A stretch of 64,000 nucleotides of DNA from a virus. Positions 9,191 to 50,802 of this stretch are shown one piece after another. The notes beneath the pieces are model-generated. The model was not told where the DNA came from. It did no database searches and saw only the letters and a list, made by a program, of their open reading frames with translations. Location: positions 16,351-80,350 of the IMG/VR virus record IMGVR_UViG_3300026521_000148; one strand, written 5' to 3'. Position 1 is the stretch's first letter; each line of letters opens with the position of its first letter. The position numbers and the translations under genes were made by a program.

Positions 9191-9886
9191 TTATTTCTCC
9201 AAGAATGCTTTAACGATATCTTCGTTGGTTGTTTTCCCGTCAAGACCATCAAACAGATTATCTGACTTAAGATTGTCCATAATCTTATTGATAACGACTT
9301 CTTTAACTTTAAGTCTAAAAGCGTTATAATCTTTTGCATCAATATCCGCAACATCAGCACCAAACTCATCTATGAACATATTAACGATGGTTCTAAGATG
9401 AATACCAGCTATGATACCATATACTTTAAGTTTATCATTTCTGATCTCTTCAGTAAGAACACCGCGTTTAACTTCGATCATAGGCATAATGCGGATAGCA
9501 TCAATTTGATCATCATACTCACCAATAACATCTCTAATAAGATCTTCATCACTAAGGATTCTGTCAACTGTTACTAATGTAAGGATGTTCCAGAAGTTAG
9601 GAATATCTCTTTTAATAGCAGATCTACGAATGAAAGCGTAATCATTTTTACGCAGCTGTGAATTGATCCATACAGGTTTAGCATTTTCATAAGATAGAAA
9701 TCTCATAACGTTACCGATGCTGTATGTCTTACCAAAGATACTCTTAAAGTTAGCAGCAAAATCAATACTTAATCTATGGCCCAATGAGTCCTCTTCTAAG
9801 TGACTACCTACTTTTAACATTACTGTATCATTACGTTGTGTACCAAGATCTTTAAGATCCTCTAAACTCATTTTCTCTTTACTCAT
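9191..9886 (-). CDS. Hypothetical protein
   Basis: 231-aa ORF in a tightly packed minus-strand run. Confidence 0.75.
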   Translation of the reverse strand: MSKEKMSLEDLKDLGTQRNDTVMLKVGSHLEEDSLGHRLSIDFAANFKSIFGKTYSIGNVMRFLSYENAKPVWINSQLRKNDYAFIRRSAIKRDIPNFWNILTLVTVDRILSDEDLIRDVIGEYDDQIDAIRIMPMIEVKRGVLTEEIRNDKLKVYGIIAGIHLRTIVNMFIDEFGADVADIDAKDYNAFRLKVKEVVINKIMDNLKSDNLFDGLDGKTTNEDIVKAFLEK

Positions 9887-9890
9887 AAAA

Positions 9891-10301
9891 CTATCCTCTG
9901 TGTTTATTTAATAATGCAACTGCGAAAGCTGCCAGATGTAATCCATCTATTCTACCAACTCCATCATCAATGATTGATTTATCTATGAACAATGGTGTTT
10001 CAATACTATTAAAGTCTATTAAATTTTTAATATACCTACTAACATAATCCCTAATATATGATGTTAAATCTCTACCATCTACAATGGTGTTATCCATAGA
10101 TGTTTTAACAAGTAATAAAAACTTTAAGTTACTATATGAACCATCAGAAGATTCTGATATATGTCTGTCTAAAGTATCTACATTTCTTTTACTAAAGAAT
10201 GCTACTATGTTAACATCATTAAGGTAGTTCCTAAACTCTTGCGGTGTATCTTTTTTAACAGATTTAACTATCTCGCTAATATGTCCTAAAACCTCTAACA
10301 T
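9891..10301 (-). CDS. Hypothetical protein
   Basis: 136-aa ORF with AGGAG RBS. Confidence 0.7.
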   Translation of the reverse strand: MLEVLGHISEIVKSVKKDTPQEFRNYLNDVNIVAFFSKRNVDTLDRHISESSDGSYSNLKFLLLVKTSMDNTIVDGRDLTSYIRDYVSRYIKNLIDFNSIETPLFIDKSIIDDGVGRIDGLHLAAFAVALLNKHRG

Positions 10302-20377: not shown

Positions 20378-20695
20378 TTAATATCGGCGTATCAGTCTTT
20401 TAAAGATTCTGTATTTCACCCATATCCTATGTTCCAATAATTCTTCTAGGCTATCGTATTTATAACTTGGCTCACCTATAGATGTTCCTAAGTTCTCAAT
20501 TTTTAAACATCTATTACGTGTGTAAAAATATACATTCTTATCCAGTTTTGCTATGTACAGTTTATAGAAATAATATTTTCTACACATCTCACATCCGCCA
20601 TTGATGCCTATCATATATAGCCTGTCATCATTCTGTTTTGGTGTGAATACTACTAATAATAGAAACATAATGGTACCAATTATAAAATAATCCAT
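20378..20695 (-). CDS. Hypothetical membrane-anchored protein
   Basis: 105 aa, hydrophobic N-terminus, CxxC, GGAG RBS. Confidence 0.65.
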   Translation of the reverse strand: MDYFIIGTIMFLLLVVFTPKQNDDRLYMIGINGGCEMCRKYYFYKLYIAKLDKNVYFYTRNRCLKIENLGTSIGEPSYKYDSLEELLEHRIWVKYRIFKRLIRRY

Positions 20696-20707
20696 GTTTA
20701 CTCCATT

Positions 20708-20869
20708 CTATTTATCGATATCATAATACCCATACGTAACTATGGTTAAAAATAACTGAGTCTCTGTGTATTCAGGGTGCGTTACTCTTAAGTATATATT
20801 ACCTATCATAATGTAACCTACAAAAGCAATAGCTACCAGCGTTACTAATGCGTCTTTAATCTTTTCCAT
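20708..20869 (-). CDS. Small membrane protein (53 aa)
   Basis: Read by hand: MEKIKDALVTLVAIAFVGYIMIGNIYLRV...; AAGGA RBS; directly after an early promoter motif. Confidence 0.6.
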   Translation of the reverse strand: MEKIKDALVTLVAIAFVGYIMIGNIYLRVTHPEYTETQLFLTIVTYGYYDIDK

Positions 20870-20890
20870 GATTCTTCCTTATTTACTTTT

Positions 20891-20920
20891 ATTAGTACAC
20901 TGTACTATTTTAATAATATA
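20891..20920 (-). promoter_or_regulatory. Putative early promoter with 5' hairpin
   Basis: Minus strand TATATTATTAAAATAGTACAGTGTACTAAT. Confidence 0.7.
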
Positions 20921-20938
20921 AAAATAAAAAAGATTAGA

Positions 20939-20966
20939 ATGTATGGTGGGACATCCCACCATACAT
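20939..20966 (-). terminator. Terminator of the nvRNAP beta' gene
   Basis: ATGTATGGTGGGA-CA-TCCCACCATACAT followed by a T-rich tract on the minus strand. Confidence 0.75.
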
Positions 20967-21178
20967 CACATTTCTAATATTTGTTTATACACAGGACAAT
21001 CTGGATCATCCTCTTCTACTTTACTAAGATAATTCATTAATGTTAATGAACTTGTTTTAGGTAAGTTAAGGTTACCGCTTATCTTGTAAATATCTAGAGC
21101 AGGTAGATTGTTGTGTGGTGCGAACACCTCTGCTAACTCTACTAGTCTATTACTAAGTAATAAGGCAAAGTTTAATTC
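20966..21178 (-). CDS. Non-virion RNAP beta' subunit (phiKZ gp55/56.1-like), exon 4
   Basis: ELNFALLLSNRLVELAEVFAPHNNL...; begins right after the intron terminal G (21179); completes NMDFDGD-E. Confidence 0.88.
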   Translation of the reverse strand, partial: ELNFALLLSNRLVELAEVFAPHNNLPALDIYKISGNLNLPKTSSLTLMNYLSKVEEDDPDCPVYKQILEM

Positions 21179-21806
21179 CGTCGCTTTCAGCAAGTGCGCT
21201 ACTACTCACCAGTTCTCAGTATCTCTACATGAACTTCCCATCCATTACAGATGGATACAAGACTATATCTTATTCCTTATATAACTACACGAGTTATATA
21301 GGATCACCCCATTTCGTCTTTAAGGGGACAATACCCCACCACTTGGCGCTACTCTACTTTCTTTAACTACATATGTAGCCACAGGGTTACTACACTACCT
21401 GTGTGATTAACTAGATCTATCACTAGTCTAGTATAGATTTCGATAGTCGTTGAACTCACACACTCTAGTCATACTAGATCACTCTCGTGGTTTAAGGTGC
21501 TTCGCTGCGTCGATCGGAGTCTAATCAATAGGTTTTTACCATGCTAGTATTTCTATTACCGACACTAGTTACATAGTCTGTTTCCAGCTATGGGTGGTAC
21601 TATTAATATAACAACTCCTCCCCGCAATTAGAGGTGTATCAACTACCTTACGGTAGAGCTAATCATTACTGATTAGGGAGACCAATTAAATTATTTTTAT
21701 AGTATAACCATTCCGTTCCGAGTTTTTTTACCAATGTTTTTCTATCGATATTAAGGAACTTTGCAGCTTTTCTTAAACTAATCTCGTAAATACGGACTAT
21801 TTTTTA
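21179..21806 (-). mobile_element. Group I intron 3 of nvRNAP beta' (628 nt, no intact ORF)
   Basis: Exon ends in U; P1 GGAGAU|UAA pairs with UUGGUCUCC (21685-21677) giving U.G at the splice site; core motifs TTCAACGACTATCGAA and GATATAGTC; terminal G. Confidence 0.88.
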
Positions 21807-21818
21807 ATCTCCATCAAA
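21807..21818 (-). CDS. nvRNAP beta' exon 3: 12-nt micro-exon encoding FDGD
   Basis: Minus strand G|TTT GAT GGA GAT|TAA between two intron cores; supplies the missing catalytic residues. Confidence 0.85.
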
Positions 21819-23133
21819 CCCACTTCTCTCGAAGTGTGGACCATATCATGATCACTTACATACCCATAGAGTAATGTAGGACCCTCTCCGTTTCGCCATA
21901 TTAAAATACAGCTACTCTACTTTCTTTAATATCTTTATAAGATACCAACCAGTTATTACGTCATGGTTGTGATTAACTAAGTCTGTTACCAGCTTAGTAT
22001 AGATTTCGATGGCCTCTGAACACATACCATACCTCTATGAAGGTTAGGCACTTCGTTGCGTCGATTAAGATCTATTTAACAAGTTTTTACTATGCCCTTA
22101 GTTCCACTATTACGGCTAGGGTATCATAGTCTGTTTCCAGCTATGAGTAGTATTGCTAACATAACGATCTCTTCCCGCAGTTAGGAGAGTTTGCTTATAT
22201 AGTTACCTATATAAGGGACTTCTTATCTTAGTATTTAAAATAACAATTTTATTCCTAGAGTCGATATAGTATCTCTAACTAGGGTGTTGCCGGGTACATT
22301 ATATAATTTACCTATATAAACGAGTGAATTGGTCGCCACCATTTCACCATCTTTAATAAACCAATATTTACAAATATTAGTCAACTTTTTCTTTAACACT
22401 TCCTCTATATTGTCTATATCTAAATAATTCAACACAGCGAAAGCGTAACCATTCTCTTTAGCATATCTCTTTTTTACTATGTCACTAGCCTGTCGTTTCT
22501 TAAAACCATGTTCACCACCCCAGATTTTTACTGGAGTATAATGTTGGCCACTATGAAACTCTAATAACATATTTACTATAGGTATATAAAAATCATACCT
22601 ATATTGTTTACCATTTATAGATACCCTGAACTCACGTTTATATTCTATACCATACTTATCTAATATACTACTTATAGCTAATTCACCTGAGCTACCACCA
22701 CACTTAGGACACCCATGGCCACGTAATAATAACTGTGGTGTTGTATCGAACTCACCATGTATCGGACAACCTATGGTTATGTTAGTTCTATTGTTTTTAT
22801 AGTTAACTTTACTATAATCAAGTTTATTACCAAACTTCTCCCTAGCTTTCTTTATGAACCTTTCTGTATTCATTTTACTGTTACCTGAACATTCGCTACA
22901 CCCGAAGCCGTTTAAGTGGTCTCCTGGTCTTTGCTGGTAGTCACCATGTATCTTACATGTTATGGTTATTTTTGTGCTTCTGTTTTTGTATACTGCGTTA
23001 TCGTAAGTATAACGTCCGTTATGGACTTTAGTGGCTCTACCGATGAACTCCTCGGTAGTTAACTTTTTACCCATTCTATACCCCTGTTTGTTTGTTTTAT
23101 GCGTTGTTTTTTATTTATCTACTAAGAAATTTT
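21819..23133 (-). mobile_element. Group I intron 2 of nvRNAP beta' (1315 nt) with an endonuclease ORF in the P1 loop
   Basis: Exon 2 ends GGAU, pairing with GUCC after the ORF (U.G); UCUUAGUA/UACUAAGA extension; core variants TTCAGAGGCCATCGAA and GATATGGTCC; terminal G at 21819. Confidence 0.88.
22235..23074 (-). CDS. Intron-encoded homing endonuclease: zinc-ribbon repeats plus PD-(D/E)XK/Vsr-like nuclease
   Basis: Two ~65-aa repeats (Y....Y....K/N.TI.C.IHG.......L.G.GC..C) then YRYDFYIP..N.LLEF..GQH. Confidence 0.8.
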   Translation of the reverse strand: MGKKLTTEEFIGRATKVHNGRYTYDNAVYKNRSTKITITCKIHGDYQQRPGDHLNGFGCSECSGNSKMNTERFIKKAREKFGNKLDYSKVNYKNNRTNITIGCPIHGEFDTTPQLLLRGHGCPKCGGSSGELAISSILDKYGIEYKREFRVSINGKQYRYDFYIPIVNMLLEFHSGQHYTPVKIWGGEHGFKKRQASDIVKKRYAKENGYAFAVLNYLDIDNIEEVLKKKLTNICKYWFIKDGEMVATNSLVYIGKLYNVPGNTLVRDTISTLGIKLLF

Positions 23134-23247
23134 ATCCATATTATAAGCGCTAGCCACGAGAACGGATATAGAGACCGTTGTATCGTTAGCATCATGCTTA
23201 AATTTTGTTATATATAGTTTTTGTATGCTGCCTTGGAGCAACGAAGG
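23134..23247 (-). CDS. nvRNAP beta' exon 2 (38 codons)
   Basis: PSLLQGSIQKLYITKFKHDANDTTVSISVLVASAYNMD; joins NRN-PSL and NMD-FDGD; preceded by G, ends in T. Confidence 0.9.
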
Positions 23248-24933
23248 CTAGTTGCATACTATATTGTAACACATAAGTATTACAGTACGCAACACAGACT
23301 ATATCATATATATATAAATCTTATAGGTCTGCTTAACCTATTGTTAATCGATCGTCTCGACACCATATTTTTCCTCTAACGCCCTATTATTAAGAGACGC
23401 CATTACGCCAATAGTTAACCCTAACTCTTTAGCTAGCTCTACTCGACTATAGATATATCTATTATTAAGTTTGTACAACTTACCATCTATAGATTTACCA
23501 TGCTTACTAAGTATTAATTGTTTATTAGTATAAATATCCTTTAAAGGATAATCATCACATAATCTCGTAATGACATAACCACTAAATATACCAGCTCTAT
23601 TAAACTTCTTAGCAGCAGTTTCTACTTTAGCGCTTATAGTTCTAGGTTTAACATTTAGTTTATTAGCAAAGTCTGTGACAGCCTGATATTCAGTAATGGT
23701 ACCGTTAACTGGATCATAGACTCTGATACCATTACATATCTTTTTGATGGGTTTAGACCATATAGCTGTTCTATCGCGCTGTGCTCTCTCCTTATCTTCT
23801 AGATCTAAAGTTATCTTAGATGTATCTATAGGTTTATACGAGAACGTGTATCCGCCTATGTATTTAGTGTCTTGTTTTAATAGATCCTTACTAAACGATG
23901 TATGAACTATACCTGTGGCGAATGATGCGTGGTATAAGTTATTATATTCTTTTACCTCGCCTGCCATATGGTCTAGTACATATACGAGTCTATCTGAATC
24001 ACCAGTAAAATGTACTTTAGCAGTTATCTTATATCTACCGTTTATAGGATATTTACTAGATCTAGGTATATAAGCTATGAGGGTATCATTACTTATCTTC
24101 AGGTATTTACTAAGCTCTTCAAGACTGATGAAGTTCTTTTTAGTACCTTCTTTTATATCCTCTAAGATACATTTGAAGTTATCTTTGCGAAGGCCCTCTT
24201 TGAACGCATGTTTAACATTCTCCGAAGCAGATACCGCTTCTAAGTTAGATATATGGTTATTGTATTTATTACCATCTTTATGATTGATCTGGTATTTATG
24301 GCCATCCCGTAGTTTGATATCTTCTGGTTTACCGAAGGCGTTAATAACCATTACATGTATGCTGCGATTGAGTTTACCGCCATCATCTAGAGGCAGGTTA
24401 ATCCTCTCATAGCCTCTGTTAGATTTAAAGGTCTTTCTTATTTTACCTGTTAATGTATTAAGTACTTTACCAGTATTGGATATAAGATATCCTTTACAAT
24501 TCTCTATCTCCCTCCATTCCTCTTTCATTTTTTGTTTCCTTGTTGTTTTTAAGATTTATATATATCGTGGCGTTTCGATTTAAGGATCGCCTGATCCACT
24601 ATAGTATAACTATAGCCCTACTCTACTGGATTTAATACCATATGGTACCAGAGAATTTTATATCTCTGTCACTCCTCTTAAGATCACTCTTAAGACGCAT
24701 CGTTCGATAGTCGTTGAGCACATCCCATATACATAAGTACTTAGGGACTTCGCTGCGTCGATCGCTCCAGTGTATATCTTTTCACTATGCCTACTTATCC
24801 TTAATTACGGTGTAGGTGTCATACTACATTTCTGTGTATGAGTAGTAATATACGACTTATGGAGTTTCCCGCGATTAGCCACGTTCTTTAGACAGAGTTA
24901 TTAAGCAGCTAACTCTGAATGGAACCCTATTTG
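23248..24933 (-). mobile_element. Group I intron 1 of nvRNAP beta' (1686 nt) with an HNH ORF
   Basis: P1 GGAAU|C-loop-GGUUCC with U.G; core CTCAACGACTATCGAA near 24703-24718 and GATATAGTC near 23300; terminal G at 23248. Confidence 0.9.
23344..24528 (-). CDS. Intron-encoded NUMOD4-HNH homing endonuclease
   Basis: EEWREI...YLISNTGKV (NUMOD4); INHKDGNKYNNHISNLE.V...EN.KHA (HNH); C-terminal NUMOD1-like helices. Confidence 0.9.
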   Translation of the reverse strand: MKEEWREIENCKGYLISNTGKVLNTLTGKIRKTFKSNRGYERINLPLDDGGKLNRSIHVMVINAFGKPEDIKLRDGHKYQINHKDGNKYNNHISNLEAVSASENVKHAFKEGLRKDNFKCILEDIKEGTKKNFISLEELSKYLKISNDTLIAYIPRSSKYPINGRYKITAKVHFTGDSDRLVYVLDHMAGEVKEYNNLYHASFATGIVHTSFSKDLLKQDTKYIGGYTFSYKPIDTSKITLDLEDKERAQRDRTAIWSKPIKKICNGIRVYDPVNGTITEYQAVTDFANKLNVKPRTISAKVETAAKKFNRAGIFSGYVITRLCDDYPLKDIYTNKQLILSKHGKSIDGKLYKLNNRYIYSRVELAKELGLTIGVMASLNNRALEEKYGVETID

Positions 24934-26028
24934 ATTCCTGTTACCCAATACAGCGATACCTTTACCTTTAGCTTCACGTATTAGTTCATCACCTATATCT
25001 GCTATCTCTTGGTCGAACATAAGAGTAGCGTTAAACACCTTAGCAGATGCTTGTTTATAAGTATAACCTCTTCTTTTAAGTTTGTTAAGAACATGCGGTC
25101 TAAATGTTGTTGTTAGTATGGACCATGGGACATGTATAGTGTCATAATCATATTCCCTACCTAATGAAGAAACAACACATCTAAATGTAAAATGAGCTCT
25201 TGTACCATAAATATTCTTACGGATAAGACCGCCTTTTCTAGACACGAGATCTTTAACATAGTTAGTAAATAACTCTGCTGATTTACTTATGATCTTAGCT
25301 GTGTTAGTTTCTAACCGTTTATTTGTCATAGTGATATCGTTAGACGTATTGATAGCTAATAATGCTAAGTCTATGATATCAGATAGTAAAACAGATGTGT
25401 AGTTACCCTTATTAGTTGTTTCCATAACAAACAACTTTTTGTTAATAAGAGGTATGTGGTCTGAAAAGATTTTATCATGATCTTCTCTATATAACTTAAG
25501 TAATGCATCTAGCTTAACTTGTTTAGTTAATGTTTTATAATATGCATTATTCTTAAGAAATATGATGATCTTCTCTAAATTGTTAACAACATTAAGATAA
25601 CTTCTACCGCCTATGATCTCTTTTAAAGATAATAGAACTATCGGTATAGATGGTGGGTTATAAGTTGTGTCTGATAACCATCTTAAACCATCTACTTTAG
25701 TATTAATAGTTCTCGATAAATCAGCCCAAAACTTAGGGTTAATAAATACCAACTCTTTTCTAAACTTCTCTACCCACAATATAGGCTCCACTGAGTCGAA
25801 TACGTTAACAACAGTTGTGTCGCATCTAGGACATGTTCTACCCAACAGGTAGGCTTTCTTATAATAACCGCACTCACACTGAGGTATCATAGAGATCTCA
25901 TCGTCATACGTTGTATAGATAAGATCTTTGATATTATCAGTACTGAGTGAAATATCATTAAGTAATAGTTTCCTATTAACCCTTTGATATAAGTCATCTA
26001 GTTGTATATAACTTTGTACAATAGCCAT
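24934..26028 (-). CDS. nvRNAP beta' subunit (phiKZ gp55-like), exon 1 (365 codons)
   Basis: CECG...CPRC zinc site, KGGLIRKNIYGTRAHFTFRCVV, ends GNRN; spliced product 477 aa. Confidence 0.9.
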
Positions 26029-26051
26029 ATAGAACTCCTTTAAAAAATGTA

Positions 26052-26080
26052 TTTAGTGACTAGCACTATATTAATAATAT
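26052..26080 (-). promoter_or_regulatory. Putative early promoter upstream of nvRNAP beta'
   Basis: Minus strand ATATTATTAATATAGTGCTAGTCACTAA (variant hairpin). Confidence 0.6.
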
Positions 26081-26109
26081 GGTTATGAAAAAAAATAGAA
26101 AGGAAATAC

Positions 26110-26137
26110 AACAGTAGGAGCTGACGCTCCTACTGTT
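26110..26137 (-). terminator. Hairpin terminator
   Basis: AACAGTAGGAGC-TGAC-GCTCCTACTGTT with T-rich tail on the minus strand. Confidence 0.7.
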
Positions 26138-26627
26138 ATTTTATTTCATATACATAAAGACTTATCTCTTTTATAGCGAATATACTTTTCTTACGATAAT
26201 CTATAAGAACCAAGTTATCTCTCAAGCTCTCTATTTTTAAACAATCGTCTAATTTTACTAATATAGTCTTAGGTGATATGTAACTTTCATTTGTTGTGAA
26301 TTTTACGCCACTAGTTAACTTTAACAATAACTCCTCTATCCGTTCCTCTTTTTCTTTACTAGATATAGTTATTATATAACCACCAGTTGCTTCGTCTGAT
26401 GCCCTTATTGTATAAATAAGATCCAATAAATCTAAGTTAGCAAATAGAACTTTAGCCACTTTGTTAATAGGTTTTATATCTCCTGTATGAGAAACTTCTA
26501 TTTTAATTTCATCGTTAAGATAAAACTTTAATAACCTCTGGTGCATTAACATTACTTTAAGCATATTAGTTACATTAAAGATATTAACTAAATCAAATTT
26601 ACTACCTTTTGCGAATAACATATCCAT
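26136..26627 (-). CDS. Hypothetical protein
   Basis: 163 aa, AAGGA RBS. Confidence 0.7.
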   Translation of the reverse strand: MDMLFAKGSKFDLVNIFNVTNMLKVMLMHQRLLKFYLNDEIKIEVSHTGDIKPINKVAKVLFANLDLLDLIYTIRASDEATGGYIITISSKEKEERIEELLLKLTSGVKFTTNESYISPKTILVKLDDCLKIESLRDNLVLIDYRKKSIFAIKEISLYVYEIK

Positions 26628-50411: not shown

Positions 50412-50802
50412 CATTTGTATTCCATATAGATCGCTACTTCTATATGCGATTAGTTTCTTTATACTACTGTTAAGTAGAACTAATCAGCTATATGTCTCCA
50501 TATAGATTAGACTATATCTTCATCTCTTTATAAAAGATGCTTACCACTTCCACCCTCGATCGCTTAGAGCGTACTCCCTTTCGGGATAGTCGTTGAGGTT
50601 TACTCTTATATAAGAGTCTTACCTGCTGATTACCTCTATTTATAACATTTTAAGGGGTCGCTACTATGTCGCCATGTAGTATCCTAGTTATAACTTAACG
50701 AGTGTGTCCCAGCATTTCAATAAGTTTAAATACACATCACTGTGTAAGTGAACCATTTTCTTTTTATTTACTTGTGAGATCACGCGGCATAACGTGTTGT
50801 TA
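50412..50802 (-). mobile_element. ORF-less group I intron (391 nt) in the tail-fibre gene
   Basis: Exon ends GAAU; P1 GAAU|UA pairs with UGGUUC; core GAAATGCTGGGA, CCTCAACGACTATCCC, GATATAGTCT; terminal G; splicing restores the frame (FLE-S-WHE). Confidence 0.88.

Follow-up and report, generated by a model that had tools for sequence, protein, structure and literature searches.

A phiKZ-type RNA polymerase gene apparently interrupted by three group I introns, two of them flanking a 12-nucleotide exon

How can a phage make the catalytic subunit of its RNA polymerase (RNAP) from a gene in which no single reading frame holds the catalytic motif? The question is raised by the DNA of an uncultured giant phage, IMG/VR record IMGVR_UViG_3300026521_000148, of which we analysed a 64-kb stretch (the window, to which coordinates refer unless a relative's locus is named). 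It is part of an 80-kb viral contig with a CheckV completeness estimate of 29% and a GC content of about 31%, for which the best DNA match in a search of public runs is a hydrothermal-vent metagenome. Between 20966 and 26028 on the minus strand, the list of open reading frames (ORFs) gives frames of 375, 394, 39 and 279 amino acids (aa), an ORF-free stretch and a frame of 75 aa. A sequence-only reading of this locus, made by a model, had proposed that the gene is assembled from four exons around three group I introns, and had correctly noted that the catalytic loop N-x-D-F-D-G-D lies in no single ORF; it is present, as NMDFDGD, only once exons 2, 3 and 4 are joined.

In this study, we examine the exon structure of the gene, the folding of its intervening sequences and their distribution among relatives. 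Joining 26028-24934, 23247-23134, 21818-21807 and 21178-20966 (minus strand) reproduced the proposed in-frame product of 365 + 38 + 4 + 70 = 477 aa, from exons of 1095, 114, 12 and 213 nucleotides (nt; the last is 210 plus the stop codon), each a multiple of three. The first catalytic aspartate is the final codon of exon 2, and the second and third are encoded by the 12-nt micro-exon, so that two of the three magnesium-binding aspartates do lie on 21807-21818, as had been claimed. The 12-mer, TTYGAYGGNGAY, was found there once in the 64 kb on both strands, against an expectation of 0.06, and the predicted spliced joint of exons 2, 3 and 4 reads AATATGGAT-TTTGATGGAGAT-GAATTAAAC. The sequence-only reading was also right that exons 1 to 3 all end in U and introns 1 to 3 all end in G (Table 1). 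Very probably, three mobile group I introns interrupt a gp55-type gene, their splicing yields the 477-aa protein, and the 12-nt exon is a by-product.

The identity of the protein was established by homology. The exon-1 ORF matches PHROG 2987, 'RNA polymerase beta subunit' (E 3e-78), and in tblastn exon 1 has matches in 248 phiKZ-like phages, with 239 phage records covering at least 80% of it; among the matches is 201phi2-1 gp107, annotated in its record as similar to beta-prime and to phiKZ gp55. The 477-aa product aligns over its full length with Bacillus phage AgentSmith gp102 (475 aa) and with 201phi2-1 gp107 (487 aa), gap-free at the junctions NRNP^SL and N-x-D^FDGD^x-LN (^ marks a junction or insertion point), and the subunits aligned in all have 475, 487, 487 and 486 aa, gp55-type proteins being about 475-490 aa long. 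Homology to gp55-type subunits across N-x-DFDGD, proposed beforehand as the check on the splicing model, was therefore borne out, and by these alignments the gene represents the N-terminal half of the beta-prime-like catalytic subunit of a phage non-virion RNAP (phiKZ gp55 type). Six relatives, here designated by locus numbers, carry the gene uninterrupted: L031 (57% identity), L026, L032, L039, L040 and L050. All six read NRNPSL and N(A/G)DFDGD(Q/E), with no indel relative to the spliced product. As judged from these comparisons, the six intron-less alleles are the strongest control for the exon structure, and a natural one; because intron-less homologues align at the junctions without indel, they fix the predicted exon boundaries and support them directly.

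The intervening sequences share a fold that identifies them, on comparative grounds, as group I introns of one IA-like family. Elements P (UAAUUGCGGG), Q (AUCGACGCAGCGAAG), R (GUUCAACGACUAUCG) and S (AAGAUAUAGUC) were located by eye in all three, and the cores were aligned with seven introns of relatives (n = 10), counting helices P3, P4, P5, P5a, P5b, P7 and P7.2. Pairing reaches 88% of cells when P7 is drawn in a pseudoknot with P3, compared with 30-44% for slid partners, and it collapses to 35-38% in these two helices when they are forced to nest. Both sides are altered in 24 of the 39 core pairs, and none of 500 shuffles matches any measure; group I architecture is thus directly supported by covariation. 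P3 stays complementary despite varied sequence (CACCUC/GGGGUG, CUCUCC/GGAGAG, CGUGGC/GCCACG), and P7 of intron 2, GGCCAU/AUGGUC, is compensatory with respect to GACUAU/AUAGUC in the other introns. Between the 5' strand of P7 and P3' lie 100-190 nt with several hairpins, where CACAGG/CCUGUG is 94% paired and covaries. Subgroup IA asks for extra P7.1/P7.2 helices at this place, and the name IA-like is provisional. A covariance model of 137 positions, covering the P3-P6 domain and built from nine introns of other phages only, matched intron 1 at 24748-24885 (104 bits, E 2.5e-19), intron 2 at 22051-22191 (109 bits, E 2e-20) and intron 3 at 21500-21638 (106 bits, E 1e-19).

The splice sites are consistent with the same assignment. 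Each intron has a P1 helix with the U.G pair, as the sequence-only reading had stated: GGAAU/GUUCC in intron 1, GGAU/GUCC in intron 2 and GGAGAU/GUCUCC in intron 3. The guide of intron 1 lies 9 nt inside the intron, and the AGG preceding it forms pairs with the start of exon 2. That of intron 2 lies 912 nt downstream, because the 279-aa ORF occupies the P1 loop; cofolding gave GGAU/GUCC together with an 8-bp stem closing the loop, UCUUAGUA/UACUAAGA, at -13.8 kcal/mol versus -7.2 ± 2.2 for shuffles, 3 of 300 of which equal it. At the 3' end of intron 2, a P9 GNRA hairpin is followed by GG, the last G being the terminal G at 21819. For exon 3 plus intron 3, the minimum free energy fold contains the P1 helix with three extra pairs (z = -2.9) and also recovers P2, P4-P6, P8 and P9. 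The guide stands directly 5' of the P2 hairpin in all aligned introns and, in relatives, changes together with the exon (GGGGAU/GUCCCC in L011, GGAGAU/GUCUUC in L008). Of all exon-guide combinations in the gene, the cognate ones are the most stable, at -4.0, -2.8 and -7.4 kcal/mol for introns 1, 2 and 3. Within the micro-exon, bases 1-3 (UUU) pair with intron 2 as P10 and bases 7-12 (GGAGAU) pair with intron 3 as P1, in agreement with the proposal that the 12 nt serve both ribozymes. In-frame stop codons occur 10, 3 and 0 codons past the 5' splice sites of introns 1, 2 and 3. Such early stops are usual in phage introns.

Table 1. Predicted features of the interrupted RNAP gene and its introns (window coordinates; IGS, internal guide sequence)
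Feature	Coordinates	Strand	Description	Basis
Exon 1	24934..26028	-	365 aa (M...GNRN), 3' end AAU	ORF list, PHROG 2987, tblastn
Intron 1	23248..24933	-	1686 nt, group IA-like, ends UAG	homology, covariance model
Intron 1 IGS	24921-24925		GUUCC	
Intron 1 P3	24878-24883 / 24566-24571			
Intron 1 P7	24705-24710 / 23296-23301			
Intron 1 P8 stems	24550-24566 / 23308-23323		ORF within P8 loop	
Intron-1 ORF	23344..24528	-	394 aa, HNH homing endonuclease, in P8 loop	
Exon 2	23134..23247	-	38 aa (PSLLQGS...AYNMD), 3' end GAU	homologue alignment
Intron 2	21819..23133	-	1315 nt, group IA-like, ends GGG	
Intron 2 P1-loop closing stem	23120-23127 / 22226-22233		P1 loop holds ORF	
Intron 2 IGS	22216-22219		GUCC	
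Intron 2 P10	22220-22222		GAA	
Intron 2 P3	22184-22189 / 21884-21889			
Intron-2 ORF	22235..23074	-	279 aa (840 nt), putative homing endonuclease, in P1 loop	
Exon 3 (micro-exon)	21807..21818	-	UUUGAUGGAGAU, 12 nt = FDGD, 3' end GAU	
Intron 3	21179..21806	-	628 nt, group IA-like, without ORF, ends ACG	
Intron 3 IGS	21677-21682		GUCUCC	
Intron 3 P3	21631-21636 / 21305-21310			
Intron 3 P7	21443-21448 / 21260-21265			
Putative decayed homing endonuclease remnant	21675..21779	-	P1 loop of intron 3	
Exon 4	20966..21178	-	70 aa (ELNFALLL...QILEM) + TGA stop	
Likely intrinsic terminator	20926..20965	-	hairpin then T run, directly after stop codon	sequence reading alone

According to the model that we favour, each intron would fold its own ribozyme core, the guide would pair, by way of the U.G wobble, with the 3' end of the upstream exon, and guanosine-initiated transesterification would free the intron and join the exons; the 477-aa protein so made would have its NMDFDGD magnesium-binding loop intact. 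The 12 bases between introns 2 and 3 would be an accidental by-product, because two distinct intron lineages would have homed to neighbouring points in a hotspot of the phage clade, the bases coding for DFDGD. Introns 1 (HNH) and 2 (zinc-finger nuclease) would have kept their endonuclease genes, while intron 3 would have lost its own. We infer that the three introns do splice, accurately and by themselves, and that they home. Several results weigh against this model. The public runs matching the window are one DNA run and one metatranscriptome (run X2, of a biofilm study, kept as contigs), in which depth is not rankable, and no RNA contig of this single metatranscriptome bridges a splice joint. 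The metatranscriptome holds 21% of the sampled words of the stretch, and RNA contigs identical to the window cover intron cores, parts of the HNH gene and exon 1; in themselves the RNA contigs neither support nor contradict splicing. In intron 2, P1 is short, with just 4 bp at the splice site, and P10 comprises 3 bp, one of them G.U. The contigs of strains 80% identical to the present phage stop short of the micro-exon and leave its conservation there unsupported. Finally, the expectation that group I models would recognise the introns stood for the relatives' covariance model and not for Rfam, since RF00028 matched none of the three (searched to E 1 in 20500-26500 and at the gathering score across the window).

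The alternatives to this model concern what the short exon is and what it does. It is most improbable that a single composite intron, a twintron, reaches from exon 2 to exon 4 with the FDGD 12-mer as a chance in-frame match. That idea is raised because the exon is so short and has no positive support, whereas the 12-mer is flanked by two complete cores that each possess a separate P1, P3-P9 and terminal G, is unique in the window and is bounded exactly by G^ and ^U; without it a universally conserved motif would be lost, and L033 and phage Goslar show the same layout with other boundaries. A damaged gene, in which at least one insertion no longer splices or needs a missing cofactor and no active subunit is made, is also very unlikely. 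In its favour are the lost endonuclease gene of intron 3, the short P1 of intron 2 and the predicted phiKZ gp55 intron, for which one long-read study had no spliced reads (PMC10914365). Yet the four exons keep an open frame and their conserved residues, the three cores have lost no paired element and show compensatory changes, and the subunit is essential in phiKZ-like phages, with no second FDGD-coding 12-mer in the window.

A different role for the twin introns was suggested by the sequence-only reading, in which a fixed splicing order and skipping of the micro-exon, giving an in-frame dead subunit, would tune or gate the switch to middle and late transcription. Deleting the 12 nt does keep the frame (NMD-ELN), as that reading had computed; exon skipping has phage precedents, in Twort group I introns (documented there as cited in PMC3073962) and in SIOphi, with an exon missing from about 47% of transcripts (PMC11878797), and the weak P1 and P10 of intron 2 could favour it. 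We nevertheless consider such a regulatory device very unlikely, and none of the present results points to skipping. The required splicing order is not upheld: intron 2 P10 and intron 3 P1 use separate bases of the micro-exon, neither contact excludes the other, and therefore no order is imposed. That intron 2 may finish before the guide of intron 3 exists is the default of transcription polarity and not a mechanism. The cognate exon-guide pairings are the best for all three introns, and the guide extension of intron 2 lacks the complementarity to exon 4 that direct skipping needs. Site occupancy varies even among the 80%-identical strains, and six relatives are intron-free. The early-to-late checkpoint is accordingly unsupported, none to three introns among relatives being the mark of selfish mobile elements and not of a conserved regulator. 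It is about as unlikely that the exon is skipped under some conditions by the two ribozymes, which would yield an assembly-competent but inactive subunit, so that the intron pair would modulate the phage's own transcription or act on co-infecting relatives.

The distribution of insertions among relatives bears on the origin of the favoured arrangement. Site polymorphism is directly observed, with at least five insertion points inside 21 bases across the phage clade. Insertions fall after N (N^ADFDGD) in phiKZ; after N-x-D in L033, in the present phage and in L034-L036, the strains 80% identical to it; a base beyond that (GACU^) in L041, L042, L046 and L052; after GACUU in Goslar; after FDG in L033; after DFDGD in the present phage, L007-L011 and L043; and after DFDGDA in Goslar. 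Site 1 (NRN^P) holds an intron in the present phage, L007 and L036 and is empty in L034 and L035, and relatives near and far carry none, one, two or three introns at the gp55 sites. Because the distribution is patchy, we read the introns as dispensable passengers. A tree of 16 intron cores gave no clean sorting by insertion site: intron 3 falls among other site-3 introns (98/96 support), intron 1 groups with the L036 intron, and introns 2 and 3 are not recent copies of one another. No simple picture of one lineage per site emerges from this tree. Two-intron micro-exons are also seen in L033 (9-10 nt) and Goslar (13 nt), and therefore, by this comparison, the micro-exon arose more than once, when two introns chanced on neighbouring points. 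The pattern points to a homing hotspot and not to a purpose-built device.

Mobility is consistent with the cargo of the introns, whose endonuclease families are directly supported by profile matches. The intron-1 ORF matches the Pfam families HNH_3 (30.1 bits, cut-off 24.8), NUMOD4 (29.8, 23.4) and NUMOD1 (34.6, 22.8) and PHROG 59 (E 2e-34). The intron-2 ORF comprises two treble-clef zinc fingers and a nuclease-like C-terminal half; it matches PHROG 559 (E 6e-53), 681, 9084 'homing endonuclease' and 7140 'intron encoded nuclease', and in Pfam it matches DUF723 just over the cut-off, with zinc-finger matches only near the cut-off. A sequence search of the PDB with this ORF returned nothing meaningful. 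Its family is also found in the P1 loop of the motif-site introns of L046 and L052, and none of 13 viral-contig relatives of this endonuclease adjoins an RNAP gene, so that they give no information on its target site. In intron 3, about 105 nt of the P1 loop translate to the last 35 residues of 476-aa P1-loop ORFs in the same-site introns of L009 and L043. The match is weak (40-46% identity, E 0.03-0.06 in a tiny database) and sits in the corresponding position, and for that reason we read the segment as a possible remnant of a decayed endonuclease gene.

Comparison with known systems places the locus within an established habit. Group I introns in phiKZ-like RNAP genes are documented, as the sequence-only reading had stated (PMC10914365, PMC11620839). 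In phiKZ itself, gp55, gp56 (HNH) and gp56.1 have been described as a non-virion RNAP beta-prime N gene with a predicted group I intron (Mesyanzhinov 2002, as cited in PMC10914365). The gene and motif are the same, and the frame in the phiKZ record breaks at KAPN^ADFDGDQLN with the HNH gene between the pieces; however, phiKZ has one intron, two codons upstream of the present site 2, and no micro-exon, whereas the present phage has three introns, two of them 12 nt apart. Goslar is a cultured, nucleus-forming Escherichia phage. By our reading of its record (NC_048170.1), gp247, Intron_gpI, HNH and gp185 correspond to NAD-F^..^DGDA^..^LNTT, with two introns (L059:4755-6560) around a 13-nt exon, CGACGGTGACGCT, at L059:6197-6209; exons again end in U and introns in G, and the predicted joint is GCCGACTT-CGACGGTGACGCT-CTGAACACC. 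It differs in its insertion points, after GACUU and after GCU, and only its first intron is annotated (Rfam, 46.9 bits). The Goslar record labels the last exon hypothetical protein gp185. No paper describing the two-intron arrangement of Goslar was found in the literature searched, nor one that combines DFDGD with group I introns. The gp210 intron of PhiPA3, a mobile group I element that carries an HNH nuclease, interrupts an RNAP beta subunit gene (PMC11620839). It too sits at conserved aspartates of a jumbo-phage RNAP gene (compare the L006 intron at DDPKRS of a beta gene), but it is a single intron in a different subunit, and a competitive function has been shown for the PhiPA3 case (PMC11620839).

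Mitochondria provide examples of tiny exons flanked by group I introns (PMC5436844), and a Bacillus phage has a small exon of this type (PMC11878797). In these cases, as here, a second self-splicing intron beside a first creates a tiny exon in a conserved catalytic region; they differ in being validated by RNA, the Bacillus-phage one in DNA-metabolism genes, whereas the present case concerns the RNAP catalytic loop and comes from sequence. That homing introns favour active-site codons is textbook knowledge (PMC12908238). Intron biology is thus unchanged, the kind of element, the target it chooses and the occurrence of tiny exons flanked by such introns being already documented, and comparative evidence indicates that the gene structure is real, well supported and a compact variant of a known mobile-intron habit. 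What the case adds is an example of dense packing of mobile introns in one catalytic motif. It also illustrates that neither the introns nor the micro-exon are picked up by standard gene callers or by Rfam, with the result that an essential polymerase gene is annotated as fragments. A 12-nt exon handled by two ribozymes would be a natural test case for short-flank recognition and for the frequency of skipping, and since the cultured phage Goslar appears to share the layout, a bench test is possible.

Several further observations were made along the way. A 105-nt contig of run X2 (depth 4.6) agrees exactly with the 3' end of intron 1 (window 23250-23324) until 2 nt before the splice site and then runs for 30 letters that differ from window exon 2; possible sources are a variant strain, circularisation of the intron or a branch in the assembly. 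L033 (7171-7937), a distant relative with 32% identity, reads NAD^FDG^DQMN, a 9- or 10-nt exon being flanked by two group I introns; P1, P10 and terminal G are clean in the second intron, and the boundary of the first is ambiguous (AACG-U^UUUGAUGGU). In L008 (1424-3299), L010 (8249-10103) and L011 (8276-8759, identical in L049), the post-DFDGD intron seems to end in A and not in G (..AAGAGA^GAA, ..UUUUAA^GAA), if the exons join as homology and P10 demand, with no change in P7; otherwise there would be an extra Arg, or the 5' exon would end in A or G. A megablast of the 5.2-kb region against phage records gave no match. Elsewhere in the window, RF00028 matches 50488-50775 on the minus strand (75.3 bits, E 3e-17, full model), the sole Rfam family match there, and this intron is also the only other match of the covariance model, at a weak 31.5 bits. 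An RNAP beta-like gene beyond the window is split by a fourth member of the IA-like intron family (L006:1198-1777, minus strand, equal to G000:C1 ~9420-10000), at ...DDPKRS^LYVNIQ, with guide GUCUC, a terminal G and a 3' third nearly identical to that of intron 3. In a distant blastn search with the intron 3 core, the sole match was a 35-nt block, 91% identical, in phage phiR1-37 (NC_016163.1; L056:2340-2671), where it lies in an unannotated gap between two coding-sequence fragments labelled 'DNA polymerase'; this gap is probably an intron of the same family.

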